Shown: piece by piece, positions 14,258 through 62,885 of the stretch
How positions within the stretch are numbered: the first letter of the stretch is position 1
Layout: every line of letters starts with the position of its first letter
Virus record (IMG/VR): IMGVR_UViG_3300033074_000580
Coordinates: 159,270-223,269 of that record
Source: a virus
Taxonomy: Duplodnaviria > Heunggongvirae > Uroviricota > Caudoviricetes
Length of the DNA: 64,000 bases
Reading direction: 5' to 3' (one strand)
Notes under the pieces: model-generated
Seen by the model: only the letters and a program-made list of their open reading frames with translations
The model's database searches: none
What the model was told of the DNA's origin: nothing
Position numbers and translations under genes: made by a program

Positions 14258-14440
14258 ATGAAAAAACAATCATCAACACGCCGTCAGACTGTAACCACTT
14301 ATGTTCCTGTATCTGACAACATCTACCACGACGGTTCATCATACCGTGTACGTGTTAGTATCAACGGTAAGAAGTACTCTAAGAACTTCTCTAACAAACG
14401 TAAAGCGGTTTCATTCCGTAACGAATTGTTAGGTCGATAG
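14258..14440 (+). CDS. AP2/integrase-arm-like DNA-binding domain protein (60 aa)
   Basis: 'YRVRVSINGKKYSKNFSNKRKAVSFRNEL' resembles AP2/integrase DNA-binding folds; codons of the cgt/ggt/aac/tac type. Confidence 0.45.
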   Translation: MKKQSSTRRQTVTTYVPVSDNIYHDGSSYRVRVSINGKKYSKNFSNKRKAVSFRNELLGR

Positions 14441-15360
14441 TAAGTACTACTTCCAATAAGACTTCGGGGTCTCCTACAGTTGCTCATGTTAGCTGTACGG
14501 GGACCCTTCTTATTTGTACATGTCAGAGATATTCCTTACCTTGTTCTTAGGGAGGAAGAAGGTCCACAAACTTTACTGGATTAACTGATTACGGGACTCC
14601 CCTTCGGGTCGTCCCTTCATCCCGTGGTGAAGGTTCCACGTGGAACGTGGGTATTACACCATACATGTGGGACTGTATGACAGGGGTATATATTGTACTA
14701 TTCTAAGTCCCCGTCGAAAATTCCCTAAGGGTTTTTCTAAAAACCATATAACTATTCTAAGATTCAGGGATGTATTACCATCCTGAAGGGAGGACTCGTA
14801 GAGTCCGACCGACTCAATCACTTCTTTTGTGGACTTAATCCAGTAAACTATGTAATACATATAACCCATTATACGGGGGTCCTAACGGACCCCCTTCATC
14901 CCGTACAGTTGCCAGACAATATCACAATATTATGACCATAGTGTATTACCCATATTTGTCTGGCAAGAATTACGGGGACTCTGTCGAGTCCCCTTCAGGG
15001 GGGTTAGGACCTATAATGTATGACACGTTATATGGTATAATATGTATTACATAATACTATAATATAAACGGGATGAAGGACCGACCGAAACGAAGTGTAG
15101 GGAGGTCCGTATTACACTAAAATGGTTATATTCTGGTACCGGAAATAAAATGGGTCGTGATTCACGCAAGGGTCAATCCCGTAATACATTCCTAGCCCGT
15201 GGGGAAAAGTGGGAATTTGTGGATTGTAATACTGGTATCCCAAATTTTAGATAAAAAAAGATAATTTAGTATATATTTTTCGATCACGATAAAAGTGTCA
15301 GAAAAAAGTACAGGTTTTTGTACTAAAAACAGGAAAAAATTCGGTCTAATTTTAGGGGGA
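14441..15360. other. ORF-free, GC-rich, hairpin-dense repeat array at the convergent junction (candidate structured ncRNA cluster, or replication origin / iteron region)
   Basis: repeated modules: CCCTTCATCCCGT at 14613 and 14892, with the reverse-orientation copy at 15068 carrying one mismatch; TACAGTTGC twice; TACGGG(G)NYYC three times; UUCG/UUCA-looped GC stems; about eight GTAATAC/GTATTAC sites; AT-rich core 15036-15066. Confidence 0.5.
14633..14646. repeat. second copy of the perfect palindrome GTTCCACGTGGAAC
   Basis: identical to 3388-3401. Confidence 0.85.
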
Positions 15361-15451
15361 AAATAGTGTGGATTCTGACTATATTAGAGGGGTTTTATTA
15401 TGGGGTTCTGGAACCGGTATTGTCGGTCGGGAGTCTTTCGACTCCCTCCCT

Positions 15452-15901
15452 TCAGGGTGTATTAAAATTTAGATGTACTCTTCTTACTATACTCGGAGTA
15501 AACTTCTTATTATGTCTTGTCTTATGTCCTTGTTCATTTAAGAGATTACTTATCTGGGTATAATTTAGATATCCATTTACCTTTACAAATTCATCTATAA
15601 AGTTCTTACAGAATATCCAATTTTCATTCTCAATACGATTCCTTTTAATAGATTCAACACCCTTTAATGTGGCAACCTTTGTTAGATTCTGAGGTGAACC
15701 TAATTTAACTCCTCTATCTTTGGCTCGTTTCAATCCTTCTCTTGTCAATATTCCATGGTTAGTAAAATCAATCCCATGTACTTTACCGTGACAAACTTCA
15801 CATAAGGGTATGGTTTTAGTTCCCCCTTTACTCTGTGGAATCACATGATGATGATGTATATTTTCCTTAGAGTCACATTCAAAACAATAATATACTTTCA
15901 T
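15452..15901 (-). CDS. HNH endonuclease fused to a resolvase-type helix-turn-helix DNA-binding domain
   Basis: N-terminal 'CFECDSKENIHHHHVIPQSKGG...CEVCHGKVHG' HNH motif; C-terminal recombinase-like HTH. Confidence 0.8.
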   Translation of the reverse strand: MKVYYCFECDSKENIHHHHVIPQSKGGTKTIPLCEVCHGKVHGIDFTNHGILTREGLKRAKDRGVKLGSPQNLTKVATLKGVESIKRNRIENENWIFCKNFIDEFVKVNGYLNYTQISNLLNEQGHKTRHNKKFTPSIVRRVHLNFNTP

Positions 15902-16231: not shown

Positions 16232-16522
16232 CTACTCAACAATAACTTTATGACATTCCCAACACTTATAACATCCTTCTCTATAGTATTCCCTATATCT
16301 TTGTTCATGAATACATCCTAATGTTTTCTCTACTACATTATTCTTTACCTTAAAGAATTTGAGAATCTTATCTGTGAAAGAGAGTTTATTCTTTCTTAGT
16401 TGTTCTTGGTATTCTATTACTTCCATGGCTTCTCCCATAGATACAGGTATACCTCTTCTAACTCTATCAGATAGTTCTTCGAGTCTATTATCCTTTATGG
16501 TCTTTCTGAATGTATTTTTCAT
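16232..16522 (-). CDS. hypothetical protein (96 aa)
   Basis: ORF track. Confidence 0.45.
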   Translation of the reverse strand: MKNTFRKTIKDNRLEELSDRVRRGIPVSMGEAMEVIEYQEQLRKNKLSFTDKILKFFKVKNNVVEKTLGCIHEQRYREYYREGCYKCWECHKVIVE

Positions 16523-16845
16523 CTATTGAATGTTATTGTTATATCTGATTGATTGTTGAATATCTCCCCGCCTTCTGTCATTCTATCCTGTCTTTCCCAT
16601 ATATCCCTTAGATATTCCGCGTTCTGTTCACTACGGAAATACCATAATGAATCATAGTCAGGTTTGAATACGATTGCAAACTTCTTTCCAACATATCTTC
16701 TTACAATAGTATATTTGGGAATCATTCTCCCCGTAATTGATGAAAATTCCTCCTTATTCATTGTATAGAACGTTTCCCCCGCGTATATATAACCACCATC
16801 GTGAGCGGTTGCAATCGGATTCTTTAAGAACTTAAACGGTTTCAT
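16519..16845 (-). CDS. hypothetical protein with MKPFKFLK N-terminal leader (108 aa)
   Basis: trimmed to the ATG that gives the shared MKPFKF leader. Confidence 0.5.
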   Translation of the reverse strand: MKPFKFLKNPIATAHDGGYIYAGETFYTMNKEEFSSITGRMIPKYTIVRRYVGKKFAIVFKPDYDSLWYFRSEQNAEYLRDIWERQDRMTEGGEIFNNQSDITITFNR

Positions 16846-16941
16846 ATACCAAATATACAATATATTCCGATATATCCCAAATAATTTAAATTTTTTTATG
16901 TCAAATCTATTGTTTAACTTTGTGGTCTAAACAAATAAACA

Positions 16942-17121
16942 CATGAAAGGAATATCTTATAGACCGTTAGCAGACATGCATAGTGATGGAGTATACTTCG
17001 ATAAAGATGAATTACTATTGGTAGGTGACGATAGTCTATGTCAATATAGTGGATTACCCTCCGTACAATCCTACGTATTCGTAAAAGAAGAAGAGGAAGA
17101 TGTGGTTATAGGACACTCATA
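16942..17121 (+). CDS. small hypothetical protein (59 aa) on the opposite strand
   Basis: manually read ATG ORF in the 245-nt gap, with a TAACTTTG -7-like box at 16914-16921. Confidence 0.25.
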
Positions 17122-17426
17122 AAGTACGTCTGAATAATATAAGATAACTTATATCCAGTGAACGCACCAAGTGCCGATGGGATTGGGAATACGATGAGTC
17201 TACCAAGGTCGGTGACGTATTTGGGACGATTAACAATCCTCCCCATAAAGAAATAGTATGCCAAATATCCCAATATAACCATGATATCAGTTCTGGTGGA
17301 TATGAATACCACAATGGTCGCACCCAAGAATCCAAAGATGAAGTTATCTCTTACCCCTTCGAACACCTCTTTGGGTCCACATTCATTCCATTCCTTAACA
17401 ATCTTTTGTAATTTCTTCTTGGCCAT
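17106..17426 (-). CDS. membrane protein (106 aa)
   Basis: two or three hydrophobic segments. Confidence 0.45.
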   Translation of the reverse strand: MAKKKLQKIVKEWNECGPKEVFEGVRDNFIFGFLGATIVVFISTRTDIMVILGYLAYYFFMGRIVNRPKYVTDLGRLIVFPIPSALGAFTGYKLSYIIQTYFMSVL

Positions 17427-17449
17427 ATACCATTAAATACCGTATGTAT

Positions 17450-18187
17450 TTATTTGGACTCGTTTATCCTTCTATTATCAACCTGTTCCTTCTTTGTTGC
17501 CCATCTACAATTATCTTTGGAATAGGCGTCAATCAATTTATGGTTATCAATCCTATCAATACTATGCGTCGGAGTGGGTTTGAAACCCATATCCTCAAAA
17601 AAATTCTCAAATGATTCCAACCACCTATCACATACCGTTAGTCCTCTTCCACCATAATCCTTAAAATGTATGGTCTTGGGATTATAACATCTCTGTTTTA
17701 ATGATTGCCAAGCCTTATACTCGGAAGTCTTATGCATATCATGCTTTGTAATTGTCTCCAAACTCCTCTCAATTCTATAACAACCACATGATGTGGTCTT
17801 TCCCGCCGTTAAATGTCTCATCTGAACCACACATATGTTCCCACATGTACATTCACACTCATATTGTCTATGGTCCCTTTTTTGATTATTGTATCTAATA
17901 CCCTCAACCTCCCTTTTCACCTTTAATCTACCATATACATCCCCAACATTTAAAAATGTTCTCCTACTCTTTAATCCATTCTCCTTGGAATTTTTAAATT
18001 TCTGACAACCGCAAGATGTTGTTGCACCATTTACCACATTAGTAAGTTTGATTACCTTCTCCACCCCACAATCACATTTACACAAAATCAACCTACCCGT
18101 GTACTTCTGACCCTCAGGTGTCGGAACTTCACGAATTATCTTTAGATATCCGTACTTCTTTTCATAATCTATTTCAATCTTTGCCAT
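17450..18187 (-). CDS. HNH homing endonuclease with N-terminal CxC...GC zinc-finger repeats
   Basis: C-terminal 'YGGRGLTVCDRW...SIDRIDNHK...NCRWATKKEQ' is a classic HNH motif. Confidence 0.85.
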   Translation of the reverse strand: MAKIEIDYEKKYGYLKIIREVPTPEGQKYTGRLILCKCDCGVEKVIKLTNVVNGATTSCGCQKFKNSKENGLKSRRTFLNVGDVYGRLKVKREVEGIRYNNQKRDHRQYECECTCGNICVVQMRHLTAGKTTSCGCYRIERSLETITKHDMHKTSEYKAWQSLKQRCYNPKTIHFKDYGGRGLTVCDRWLESFENFFEDMGFKPTPTHSIDRIDNHKLIDAYSKDNCRWATKKEQVDNRRINESK

Positions 18188-18195
18188 TCTTTATA

Positions 18196-18450
18196 CTATT
18201 GGGGTTGTTGTTCCCAGTTTTCCCTATTACTCCAACCCGTCATCCAATGTTCACGTTCTATTGTTCCAATATCATATGGACATTGACCTGGTGGGAGATT
18301 GTTATGATGTGCATCCCAACCTTGATATTGTTCGTATGGGATGGGAGTAGGTTCTTCCCTTATTCCACCCAAGAAATAATCATCCATCCTATCCATGTAG
18401 TCGGTGAATACTCTCTCGGGTTTATTTTGAAAAAATTTAAATGGTTTCAT
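18196..18450 (-). CDS. hypothetical protein with MKPFKFFQ leader (84 aa)
   Basis: ORF track; shares its N-terminal octapeptide with neighbouring genes. Confidence 0.5.
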   Translation of the reverse strand: MKPFKFFQNKPERVFTDYMDRMDDYFLGGIREEPTPIPYEQYQGWDAHHNNLPPGQCPYDIGTIEREHWMTGWSNRENWEQQPQ

Positions 18451-18453
18451 ATA

Positions 18454-18756
18454 TTAAGGTCTAAATCTTATCCATTGAATTGCAATCAAATCCACTAATA
18501 TATCAAATCTCCAACCAATTCCATCATTATCAATACTATGTACAAAACCATCAGGACCGGTAATTGATAAGATTATTGCAATATGTCCATCAGGAAATTG
18601 ATTTAGAAATGAATGAATACCAAAATGATAATCTAATGCAATATCGTAATTGTATTGGTCAAGATTCTCAAGTCTTCCCCACATCCACGATGCACCATTG
18701 TGTGGTGTTATCTCATCCTGATTGTTATCTTGAAAAAATTTAAAATCTTTTACCAC
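18454..18756 (-). CDS. hypothetical protein with M-VKDFKFFQ leader (100 aa)
   Basis: ORF track. Confidence 0.5.
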   Translation of the reverse strand: MVKDFKFFQDNNQDEITPHNGASWMWGRLENLDQYNYDIALDYHFGIHSFLNQFPDGHIAIILSITGPDGFVHSIDNDGIGWRFDILVDLIAIQWIRFRP

Positions 18757-19250
18757 ACACTTAATATTTTTGCTATCGTTAGAATTACAAATATTGTTAA
18801 TCCTCCGGCAATTGCAATTACACCTGCTGGGTCTTTAAACCAAAACTGTTCTTGAAAGAATATCTTTATCTTCATCCACCATTTTGGATTTGTTGTTGTT
18901 GCTATTGGTGTGCCGGTGAAGAATGGTACAATTCTTTCTCCACCATTTATTCTTCTAATCAATCTCAATCTTTCTTGGTGCTCTTGGTCTTCGATTCTTT
19001 GTCTGGTTAATTGAGTTGGTTGAATAGTTTCAAAACGTCCTAACTCCCTGTCAAAATAATATCTATCCGCCTCCATATGTGTACCTCGATACAATCTATC
19101 ATATGTGGCACGGTCTGTGTGATATAATCTTCTTCGATACATATGACCACCAGGAGTGTCCTCATTAAACGATGCGGTTGCTTGAGTTAAATCATTTAAC
19201 ATCTGCGGGTCATCGAGTGTCCCCTTCTGAAAAAATTTAAATGGCTTCAC
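18750..19250 (-). CDS. hypothetical protein with MKPFKFFQ leader and C-terminal TM segment (166 aa)
   Basis: GTG start; ORF track. Confidence 0.5.
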   Translation of the reverse strand: MKPFKFFQKGTLDDPQMLNDLTQATASFNEDTPGGHMYRRRLYHTDRATYDRLYRGTHMEADRYYFDRELGRFETIQPTQLTRQRIEDQEHQERLRLIRRINGGERIVPFFTGTPIATTTNPKWWMKIKIFFQEQFWFKDPAGVIAIAGGLTIFVILTIAKILSVW

Positions 19251-19548
19251 TGTATTGTATTTGTTCTTCTTTTATTTCTTCAATCAATGGTTGGTTTTCC
19301 AATTCCTCAATTACGATATTGATAGCTTCAGGGTAATGTGTGTCACCACTTCGAAAGTTTATACCTACTAAACCTAATACCTCATTGTTAATGTAGTGAC
19401 GATTCTTACCTTTACCATTCACAATCTCGTGGTCCATCGAAACATCATCCCAACTTTCTAAGACACATTGATGTCCACCTTTAATTTTGTAATGTAATCT
19501 CACAATATTATTGTGAGAAAATTGTTTGATGAATTCTCCTAATTTCAT
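19237..19548 (-). CDS. hypothetical protein (103 aa)
   Basis: ORF track. Confidence 0.45.
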   Translation of the reverse strand: MKLGEFIKQFSHNNIVRLHYKIKGGHQCVLESWDDVSMDHEIVNGKGKNRHYINNEVLGLVGINFRSGDTHYPEAINIVIEELENQPLIEEIKEEQIQYSEAI

Positions 19549-19552
19549 ATTT

Positions 19553-19753
19553 TTAATTTTCTATATCAACGTGAAAAAATATCGAGTCCCATTTAGAGTG
19601 AGCCATAAAACGTGTACCATCTTTACATTCATAAAGATTAACCGGTTTACCATTAACAATGTCTGTGAATCTAAACTCTATAAATTTTGCAAATAATCTT
19701 TTTATCATCACTAATTGTTTTCGTAAATCAATGTATAGTCTCCATTGATACAA
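19553..19753 (-). CDS. hypothetical protein (66 aa)
   Basis: ORF track. Confidence 0.35.
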   Translation of the reverse strand: MYQWRLYIDLRKQLVMIKRLFAKFIEFRFTDIVNGKPVNLYECKDGTRFMAHSKWDSIFFHVDIEN

Positions 19754-19950
19754 ACATTTTTCTTATTTGTATCTCTAAAATATATTGTTCTTCCTGTAAC
19801 ATTAAACTGGTTACAATGATACACTCTGTCTGCGGCATATATTGTATACTTTGCGGGTTTATCAGATGTAAACAAACTAATCAACTTTACAAATGTCACA
19901 AATGCAATTAACAACATTGCAAATACAACCGTTTTTTTAAATGGTGTCAT
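19711..19950 (-). CDS. small secreted/membrane protein (79 aa)
   Basis: N-terminal hydrophobic signal-like segment. Confidence 0.4.
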   Translation of the reverse strand: MTPFKKTVVFAMLLIAFVTFVKLISLFTSDKPAKYTIYAADRVYHCNQFNVTGRTIYFRDTNKKNVCINGDYTLIYENN

Positions 19951-62147: not shown

Positions 62148-62411
62148 ATGGCTAAGTCAAGAAAAAAGAAAATTGAAACTCCTGAGGTTGAATTTGACCT
62201 TAATGTTCCTGAAATTGAATATTATACTCCGTGTGAGTGGATGATTCAATTTGACGATGATGAACCTCAATTGTTTGCACAATCAGACGATAATTCAACC
62301 AATCATGAAGTTGTAATTAAATTACAAAACACAAACCAATCGTTTATAACTTTTACCAATAGTGAAAATGGTAAGACTTTTAAAATGTGGGCAAGACCCA
62401 AACAAAAATGA
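62148..62411 (+). CDS. hypothetical protein (87 aa), tandem paralog
   Basis: 'QFDDDEP' block shared with the next gene. Confidence 0.4.
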   Translation: MAKSRKKKIETPEVEFDLNVPEIEYYTPCEWMIQFDDDEPQLFAQSDDNSTNHEVVIKLQNTNQSFITFTNSENGKTFKMWARPKQK

Positions 62412-62665
62412 GTTTTAAATTTTTAAGAGGTGATGAAGATATATTTTTAAGATTGGAACCAATGCAGGTATTATCTTTAAGACAAAACACACCTCACACA
62501 AATAATGAATATTGTTTTCAATTCGATGACGATGAACCTCACGTGTTTGGTACGGGTCATGATACATTAACTATGACAATACAACCAACAACCGGTGGGA
62601 ACATAACATTCGAACATAATGGTAGAAGATTTAAAATATTTGCGAGGGAAAGAATAAATGAATAG
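62408..62665 (+). CDS. hypothetical protein (85 aa), tandem paralog
   Basis: ATGA overlap; trimmed to MSFKFLRG. Confidence 0.4.
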   Translation: MSFKFLRGDEDIFLRLEPMQVLSLRQNTPHTNNEYCFQFDDDEPHVFGTGHDTLTMTIQPTTGGNITFEHNGRRFKIFARERINE

Positions 62666-62885
62666 TTTTAAATTTTTTCGTGGCTTTGTTGTTGATGTTG
62701 AAACGGAATTAACGAATATGTTATCCGAACAAATTGCGAGAGAAATTGATAATAATATTATTGATGAATTAACCAGAAGAATAAACGATGGTGTACCATC
62801 AATATTTGAAGGTAGAATACAACGTTTAAATACTAATTTAGAATATTTTAATCGTTGGATGGACATAGGAGGACAAAGAGCATGA
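62658..62885 (+). CDS. hypothetical protein (75 aa)
   Basis: ORF track. Confidence 0.35.
   Translation: MNSFKFFRGFVVDVETELTNMLSEQIAREIDNNIIDELTRRINDGVPSIFEGRIQRLNTNLEYFNRWMDIGGQRA

Follow-up and report, generated by a model that had tools for sequence, protein, structure and literature searches.

A group of small genes in a 64,000-nucleotide (nt) stretch of uncultured phage DNA (positions 159,270 to 223,269 of IMG/VR record IMGVR_UViG_3300033074_000580; this whole stretch is the window below, and its positions are counted from 1) share a short N-terminal leader with the core FKF[F/L], which precedes protein bodies that are unrelated to each other. Comparison of the sequences indicates that this leader is translated, is selected as a protein and is separable from the body that follows it. 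We consider it likely that the leader is a tag that is read in trans as an address label and is maintained by selection at the level of the peptide. That a single partner would read such a label follows from the combination of a nearly invariant core, a fixed distance from the N-terminus, a position on a flexible tail and the unlike folds of the proteins that carry it. The destination is a more tentative matter; by analogy with the internal proteins of phage T4, it could possibly be the procapsid.

Four of the tagged genes are clustered on the minus strand (Table 1) and had been noticed in a first-pass annotation of the window, the coordinates and translations of which hold, with N-termini of the form M-(K/V)-(P/KD)-F-K-F-(F/L). 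The same starts were assigned to these four genes in independent gene calls on two public contigs with the same DNA. GTG is also called as the start in orthologs of gene 3, which encodes a protein of 100 amino acids (aa), and the orthologs of the 166-aa gene 4 (L006, L007, L009 and other loci) begin with ATG-AAA-CCA. The remainder of that description is borne out as well: the four bodies belong to four separate BLAST clusters, and two of them have different confident AlphaFold models; the leaders differ by the synonymous changes that had been listed (CCA/CCG, AAA/AAG, TTT/TTC); and the upstream sequence is not conserved, the 20 nt before each start being unlike one another. Two further tagged genes, which that annotation had overlooked, were identified by a six-frame scan of the window for F-[K/R]-F-[hydrophobic]. 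FKF[FL] is present at residues 3–6 in 6 window genes, vs 0.015 expected from the amino acid composition of the window itself (Poisson P ~2e-14), and its only other occurrence among the predicted proteins counted is internal, in a 466-aa protein. The start of gene 4 overlaps the end of the upstream gene (19237–19548) by 14 nt, and that of gene 5 overlaps the preceding stop codon (ATGA). A 79-aa gene that adjoins the cluster (19711–19950) starts with MTPFKKTVVFAMLL, which is half-similar to the leader (M-T-P-F-K) and continues into a hydrophobic segment; this N-terminus may be a decayed leader or unrelated.

Table 1. Tagged genes, untagged relatives and neighboring genes. Coordinates refer to the window unless a contig is named.
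Feature	Coordinates	Strand	Description
Tagged gene 1	16845-16519	minus	ATG start, MKPFKFLKNP, 108 aa; FKFL core codons 16836-16825
Tagged gene 2	18450-18196	minus	ATG start, MKPFKFFQNKPE, 84 aa; core codons 18441-18430
Tagged gene 3	18756-18454	minus	GTG start, MVKDFKFFQDNNQDE, 100 aa; core codons 18744-18733
Tagged gene 4	19250-18750	minus	GTG start, MKPFKFFQKGTLDD, 166 aa; core codons 19241-19230
Tagged gene 5	62408-62665	plus	MSFKFLRGDED, 85 aa; core codons 62414-62425
Tagged gene 6	62658-62885	plus	MNSFKFFRG, 75 aa; core codons 62667-62678
Untagged paralog of gene 5	62148-62411	plus	MAKSRKKK N-terminus
HNH-type endonuclease gene	15452-15901	minus	149 aa; Pfam HNH 20.9 bits, HNH_5 22.3 bits, both just below the cut-offs
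Array-interrupting gene without leader	17106-17426	minus	106 aa; hydrophobic stretches apparent by eye
Array-interrupting gene	17450-18187	minus	245 aa; putative homing-type endonuclease
MKL-type paralog, contig L147	12571-13416		
MKL-type paralog, contig L147	15972-16805		
MKL-type paralog, contig L147	16805-17851		
MKL-type paralog, contig L147	18519-18968		
MKL-type paralog, contig L147	18973-19332		

The anatomy of the tag was delineated on 110 unique tagged open reading frames (ORFs) from the phage lineage to which the window belongs, a pooled set that was selected by the motif itself. The encoded proteins are 46–191 aa long (median 107), and their bodies form at least 36 BLAST clusters, many of them mosaic. 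The first Phe of the core is most often residue 4 (69 proteins), followed by residue 5 (32), residue 3 (6) and residue 6 (3); it is preceded at a distance of two residues by Lys or Arg in 72% of the proteins and immediately by Pro in 48, Asp in 21, Glu in 12, Thr in 8 and Ser in 8. The core is followed by Q/R/K/S/T and next by G/K/N, so that the consensus reads M-(I/V/L)0-1-[K/R]-[P/D/E/T/S/Q]-F-K-F-[F/L]-[polar]-[G/K/N]. The leader is not represented in any Pfam, PHROG or NCBIfam model, and it does not have the features of a Sec, lipoprotein or Tat signal peptide, given that the residues after the motif are polar and there is no hydrophobic stretch beside it.

Because the pooled set was selected by the motif, conservation was examined in families defined by homology of the bodies. 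In the family of a 157-aa tagged protein, the motif is kept in 119 of the 126 members; among the seven exceptions, the N-terminal region is missing from four, and the core of the other three is FKLL or FNFF. In the alignment of the 100-aa family (32 sequences, 49–99% identity), every sequence has F5 and at least 90% have K6 and F7, and the leader is followed over the next 10–20 residues by an acidic linker with indels of 0–9 residues. In that of the 108-aa family (45 sequences), the invariant residue is F6, with F4 and K5 found in at least 90%. The leader is thus a regular feature of the homologs in related phages, nearly invariant in two families of the window, rather than being absent from them, the outcome that the first-pass annotation had named as speaking against a shared tag. 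An exhaustive profile search of 1.84 billion representatives yielded no more than 33 clusters. Of 26 representatives that were inspected, about 20 retain the motif, and a few carry another N-terminus. The untagged paralog in the window and the tagged gene 5 adjacent to it have bodies that are 38% identical (E 2e-11). This paralog, together with the family members that have other N-termini, implies that the leader is a separable module.

Codon usage within the leader is that of an ordinary coding sequence. The share of TTT at the three core Phe positions is 78, 60 and 77%, vs 73% in the bodies of the same genes, the core Lys is encoded by AAA in 77% of the cases (68% in the bodies), and the four-residue core as a whole is encoded by 28 DNA strings, with TTT, TTC, TTA, CTA, CTT, CTC and TTG all used at the fourth position. 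Given that the wobble positions vary as freely as in other codons and the residues are nevertheless maintained, selection appears to act on the protein, and the claim that the conservation is at the level of the peptide rather than the DNA stands. A translation start downstream of the leader is likewise at odds with the kept frame, the body-like codon mix, the alternation of Phe and Leu and the agreement of the independent gene calls. A slippery site or +1 frameshift at UUUAAA that would fuse neighboring genes was considered and rejected because many leaders use TTC-AAA and accordingly contain neither a stop nor a slippery run.

Structural models are available for two of the tagged proteins. 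In the AlphaFold model of the 100-aa protein, the predicted local distance difference test score (pLDDT) is 64 for residues 1–20 and 89–95 for the body, which is beta-rich and has no fold match in the PDB; in that of the 108-aa protein, it is 60 for residues 1–10, and the body is predicted to consist of a small beta-rich domain followed by a long C-terminal helix. The block pLDDT values of both bodies are 89–97, and their folds differ. Since in these models a leader of low confidence is located ahead of confidently predicted and dissimilar bodies, it is best described as a short linear motif on a flexible tail.

The search of related phages for MKPFKFF-led ORFs with other cargo, which had been suggested at the outset, recovered such ORFs across the whole phage lineage. 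The scan of viral contigs for the exact pattern (degenerate DNA encoding MKPFKFF[Q/H]) produced 9 matches in 8 loci, 7 of which start ORFs of 99–189 aa on related low-GC contigs of 37–335 kb, including both orthologs of the window genes and new bodies. The cellular genomes scanned (596 Gb) contain 16 matches, nearly all in short or internal frames and attributable to chance, and about one of the 16 is a convincing gene start. The one clear exception, a 62-aa ORF from the Pelagibacteraceae single-cell genome AG-895-J17 (L020, 5808–5996), starts with MKPFKFFQEVRREGSKVTWP (MKPFKFFQEV), such that its first eight residues are those of the phage leader; this ORF resembles SecE (...KVTWP..., one hydrophobic helix), SecE N-termini commonly read K-F-F-x-E-V, and one such match is expected per ~5e8 proteins. 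In view of this expectation, the identity is regarded as probably a coincidence. The scan of metagenomes added about 20 further loci of the lineage, amid many chance matches.

In the relatives, tagged genes form co-directional arrays, with runs of 12–19 small genes that follow one another and all carry the tag. In L010, 14 consecutive genes start with M-x(0-4)-FKF[F/L], and L004 is similar. Within 20 kb of a 335-kb contig (L147) with Joint Genome Institute gene calls, 19 of the 48 genes are tagged, and 3 more have a variant motif or a start that was called too far downstream, which brings the number to at least 19–22. Twelve consecutive tagged genes in this region overlap their predecessors by 1–14 nt, the overlap being exactly 14 nt in six cases, where the upstream stop codon is the TAA within ...CCA-TTT-AAA... 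of the next gene's leader. The genes that precede tagged genes often end in ...E-T-I, ...E-N-I or ...E-A-I (window 19237–19250; L147 9649–12143; P0228, P0232, P0233); we consider this apparent C-terminal motif a by-product of the 14-nt overlap with the next leader. The FKF[F/L] array of L147 is adjoined by a second set of paralogs, of 119–348 aa, with another common N-terminus, MKL[L/M/I]D[I/T][L/I/V].ED (Table 1). No ORF starting with the tag was found in 119 loci (989 kb, 30–38% G+C) around T4-like capsid genes of other aquatic phages.

With a G+C content of 32.5%, the window contains about 115 genes, most of them small. Those that can be recognized have accessory or metabolic roles and encode a radical SAM and B12-binding protein, thymidylate synthase, DNA methylases, a PcfJ-like protein, an SPFH protein, glycosyltransferases and a GDSL lipase. 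A 99%-identical counterpart of the 100-aa protein is encoded on a contig of 323,865 bp that has sister contigs of 316–335 kb, from which it follows that the source is an uncultured phage lineage with genomes of ~320 kb. No cultured relative was detected among 50,697 phage records, either by DNA comparison or with those proteins that were used as queries, and the sole match to cyanophages, a sugar-nucleotidyltransferase, carries little information on the lineage. Shine–Dalgarno-like sequences precede 3 of the 81 window genes of at least 100 aa, vs a background of 7.7%, and the upstream regions are G-poor, with 54–67% A at positions -14 to -10 and 51% T at -15. Start sites that are A-rich and poor in Shine–Dalgarno sequences are typical of Bacteroidota, and the near absence of such sequences combined with the A-rich upstream regions suggests a host from this phylum, probably a flavobacterium.

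Most of the cargo has no family in Pfam, PHROGs or NCBIfam, and several sub-modules (YTDEYxF, MDRMDD..LGGIR, RHWNLLPQDL and stretches similar to Rmf/CrpP) recur in varied combinations across the bodies. The C-terminal part of the 84-aa protein is Rmf/CrpP-like (NCBIfam NF041886 over residues 43–74, 25.9 bits vs a cut-off of 28; Pfam RMF, E 2.3e-4, 21.6 bits vs a cut-off of 27.9). Profile matches of this kind were obtained for 18196–18450 and L004 7175–7408 only, both below the cut-offs. The underlying pattern, G[WY]..A..G....NPY......W..GW, recurs as cargo of several unrelated tagged genes, and further such stretches were recognized by eye in L004 6620–6856, L004 4064–4297 and L010 8810–9037. 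All 8 members of the 166-aa family have a strongly hydrophobic, transmembrane-like C-terminal segment, which in gene 4 reads AGVIAIAGGLTIFVILTIA; in the hydrophobicity scan of the tagged proteins, this was the only strong stretch common to a whole family. The isoelectric points of the tagged proteins are widely spread, with a median of 6.7, like those of their untagged neighbors.

Two cargo proteins contain stretches that resemble a T4-like capsid protein. In the 75-aa protein of gene 6, 32 residues are 56% identical to residues 329–360 of the capsid protein of Microcystis phage Mel-JY01 (Pfam Gp23, E 6.6e-5, below the cut-off), and the 157-aa protein encoded by L004 5576–6049 contains a '...RR....IA.D.V.VQP...' stretch of the same protein. 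These correspond to the two most conserved segments of T4-type major capsid proteins, AELT.MLSE.I..EID near residue 330 and the VQPM region. Neither protein is a full-length Gp23, with 25–32 matching residues and 22.9 and 18.9 bits vs a cut-off of 24.4. These stretches, which could be captured fragments of capsid genes or assembly mimics, are treated here as leads because they are short and score below the family cut-offs. The capsid-like peptide was also used to look for the capsid gene of this lineage; it retrieved 119 T4-like capsid genes, none of them from the lineage.

By analogy with T4, we tentatively propose that the common reader of the tag would be a component of the assembling procapsid and that the tag would bring into the head an extensive and rapidly changing set of small effectors, which would then be co-injected. 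Such a tag would work like the T4 capsid targeting sequence, without being homologous to it and apparently without proteolytic removal after a Glu residue. Compatible with capsid loading are the logic that it shares with the T4 tag, the small size of the cargo, in which it resembles the T4 internal proteins, the presence of capsid-like stretches in two of the cargo proteins, and the diversity and mosaic structure of the cargo, which suggest an arms race. Several observations weigh against this destination. Sites of the prohead-protease type are not enriched after the tag: [LIV]-x-E is present within ~25 residues in 22 of 110 proteins, vs 25 of 104 control segments, and [SAG]-x-E in 23 of 110, vs 26 of 104. 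The likeness to the T4 tag sequence is only loose, and the number of tagged genes per genome (at least 19–22) is far above that in any known tag-loaded capsid set. The C-terminal hydrophobic segment of the 166-aa family is more easily reconciled with membrane insertion than with capsid storage, and the broad, neighbor-like spread of isoelectric points implies that the proteins are not DNA-binding-like. The arrays are embedded among small accessory genes, with no structural gene in the window or in the flanks that were fetched, and none of the T4-like major capsid proteins sampled (119 genes from other aquatic phages) starts with the tag. The capsid-like stretches, finally, are short, below the family cut-offs and prone to detection bias. 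In a broader version of the proposal, to which we give little weight, the tag and a phage-encoded reader would constitute a dedicated sorting system, with overlapping arrays that capture any coding fragment recombined behind FKF[F/L], including capsid-like and Rmf-like pieces, for co-translation and delivery to a single destination, the capsid or another compartment made by the phage.

Explanations in which the tag is read by a different partner have to be weighed against capsid loading. The N-terminus might be a turnover or chaperone handle that is recognized by an AAA+ protease of the host or the phage, an adaptor or a chaperone (ClpXP, Lon, trigger factor, DnaK or SecB), so that co-expressed takeover proteins would be short-lived or would be passed to one folding or degradation machine. 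The strictly N-terminal location of the tag on a flexible tail is compatible with this possibility, and so are the aromatic residues that alternate with Lys and the basic flanks, given the preferences of trigger factor, SecB and ClpX N-motif 1, which reads polar-(T/hydrophobic)-hydrophobic-basic-hydrophobic and to which x-[P/T]-F-K-F conforms. Moreover, the coupled arrays have the appearance of early accessory genes, such a handle requires no cleavage site, and both membrane-anchored and Rmf-like cargo would be accommodated. The known degron and chaperone motifs are degenerate, whereas the F, K and F of this tag hardly vary and keep a fixed offset, and Asp or Glu directly before the first Phe in 30% of the tags is a poor fit to ClpX motif 1; to our knowledge, there is no precedent for a phage lineage with one degron on dozens of families. 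On balance, we regard such a handle as rather unlikely. We hold a similarly reserved view of the tag as a docking motif for some other common hub, such as a phage-built compartment, a membrane surface, the ribosome or a phage enzyme that modifies the conserved Lys or the N-terminus, which would bring all array products to one place or subject them to one modification. The general evidence for a tag read in trans applies equally to this case; F-x-F followed by Gly, Asn or Pro would suit binding as an added beta-strand, the recurrence of Rmf/CrpP-like cargo hints at ribosome-directed functions, and KFF-type repeats are known as membrane-active peptides, with (KFF)3K used as a carrier. Nevertheless, no candidate receptor was identified, a single unit of 4–8 residues is weak for membrane binding, and the cargo seems too varied for one target.

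Two other explanations dispense with a reader in trans. In one, the leader would be a family heirloom, inherited from one ancestral small gene through tandem duplication and module swapping, with the N-terminus kept for a role inside each protein, for instance as an oligomerization strand. Tandem arrays and mosaic bodies that share sub-modules in different combinations are what such a history would produce, but AlphaFold packs the leader into neither of the two modeled bodies, the linker between leader and body varies in length in the 100-aa family, the two modeled bodies have different folds, 36 clusters show no detectable similarity to each other, and leaderless members and paralogs exist, so that this scenario appears improbable. 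The other invokes RNA: UUYAARUUYYU after the AUG would be a translational operator or enhancer (cf. the AU-rich RegA sites of T4 early mRNAs) or a context for starts without Shine–Dalgarno sites. It could draw on the scarcity of these sites in the window (3 of 81) and the A-rich upstream regions, on the extreme AU-richness of the motif and its fixed distance from the start, on the fact that all synonymous changes in the Phe and Lys codons are transitions, tolerable to wobble pairing, and on the stops of upstream genes that fall within the motif. Against this, the wobble positions have the genome-wide codon mix and no extra constraint; Phe and Leu alternate at the fourth position, with six further codons in use, transversions included; the substitutions (K to R) are conservative at the protein level; and the codons just ahead of the motif (CCA, GAT, GAA, ACA) are unrelated to each other. 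Nor would selection on composition by itself fix F-K-F as the order, and we consider an RNA signal highly improbable.

The surroundings of the minus-strand cluster are only in part as originally described. The cluster had been placed between two HNH homing endonuclease genes. One of these, a weak HNH gene (the Pfam HNH cut-off is 21.4 bits; Table 1), is indeed located outside the cluster, two genes beyond it, but the other is inside. The latter gene has no Pfam match; its DNA is 69–78% identical over 80–200 nt to staphylococcal phage genes annotated as HNH/helix-turn-helix homing endonucleases, and by this similarity it probably encodes a homing-type endonuclease. The other interrupting gene, which encodes a 106-aa protein, has no family match. 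Downstream of the HNH gene (15901–15452), a region of ~1 kb (14440–15450) is without a credible ORF and contains a terminator-like GC hairpin (14993–14974); there is no Rfam match in it at the gathering threshold, only weak ones far below at E up to 1. The window as a whole contains neither tRNA genes nor Rfam matches, and a scan of it for promoters and terminators found sites in numbers no higher than in shuffled sequence.

A four-residue tag that is carried by dozens of fast-evolving small proteins provides a route into the unannotated "dark matter" that large uncultured phages encode, given that sequence alone suffices to list the tagged genes and that the destination of the tag would apply to all of them. 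If the destination is the capsid, this would be the second such system after that of T4, on a much larger scale, and would be useful for finding injected anti-defense proteins and as a tool for protein packaging. Were the tag instead a degradation or docking signal, it would represent a so far unseen form of phage control over a whole set of genes through one partner, and a dedicated sorting system would amount to natural multi-cargo protein delivery with more than 20 payloads per genome.

Among known systems that could provide a precedent, the signals read by AAA+ proteases and chaperones (ClpX N-motifs and those of trigger factor and SecB) are exposed aromatic and basic stretches with a loose consensus on single proteins, unlike the nearly invariant core that is found here on dozens of families in one lineage. 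The loading peptides of encapsulins and microcompartments are similar to the tag in that a short terminal peptide on diverse cargo is read by a shell or scaffold. These peptides are ~10–20 residues long, helical and often C-terminal, in contrast to the four-residue core without a predicted helix in a phage context. The inner-body proteins of giant phages are mostly large, are cut at [S/A/G]-x-E, have propeptides and are not known to share a short tag; here, by contrast, all tagged proteins are no longer than 191 aa, and [SAG]-x-E is not enriched. For phiKZ and SPN3US, many head-internal proteins have been described, some of which form paralogous families (PMC5694885, PMC7411985). Searches of the literature for the motif strings and for common N-termini in jumbo phages returned nothing relevant, the former only (KFF)3K carrier peptides and food peptides.

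The closest parallel is the capsid targeting sequence of T4 (IpI, IpII, IpIII and Alt). The internal proteins of T-even phages are diverse defense proteins that have only this sequence in common, and the tag places them in the scaffolding core (PMC3012670). T4 IpII and IpIII, which we fetched and translated, share MKTYQEFIAE before unlike bodies. In both cases, a short N-terminal peptide is common to small proteins with unlike bodies, the set of cargo differs between related phages, the tag is separable, and the genes are located among non-structural accessory genes with homing-type endonuclease genes close by. There are also differences: MKTYQEFIAE and MK[P/D/T]FKF[F/L] coincide in M, K, an occasional T, an aromatic residue at position 4 and F7, and the T4 tag ends in I-A-E, which is cut by the prohead protease, whereas no such site is enriched here. 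Furthermore, T4 has few such genes, each with its own intergenic region, as opposed to at least 19–22 in overlapping arrays, and packaging has been demonstrated for T4, whereas the present lineage is known only from metagenomes. Thus, the analogy with the T4 internal proteins drawn in the first-pass annotation extends to a short common peptide before variable cargo but not to the sequence of the tag or its protease site. Taken together, these comparisons point to a tag of a known kind, namely, a terminal address label on variable phage cargo, for which we can only propose a destination, but the sequence of which appears to be new and the scale unprecedented.

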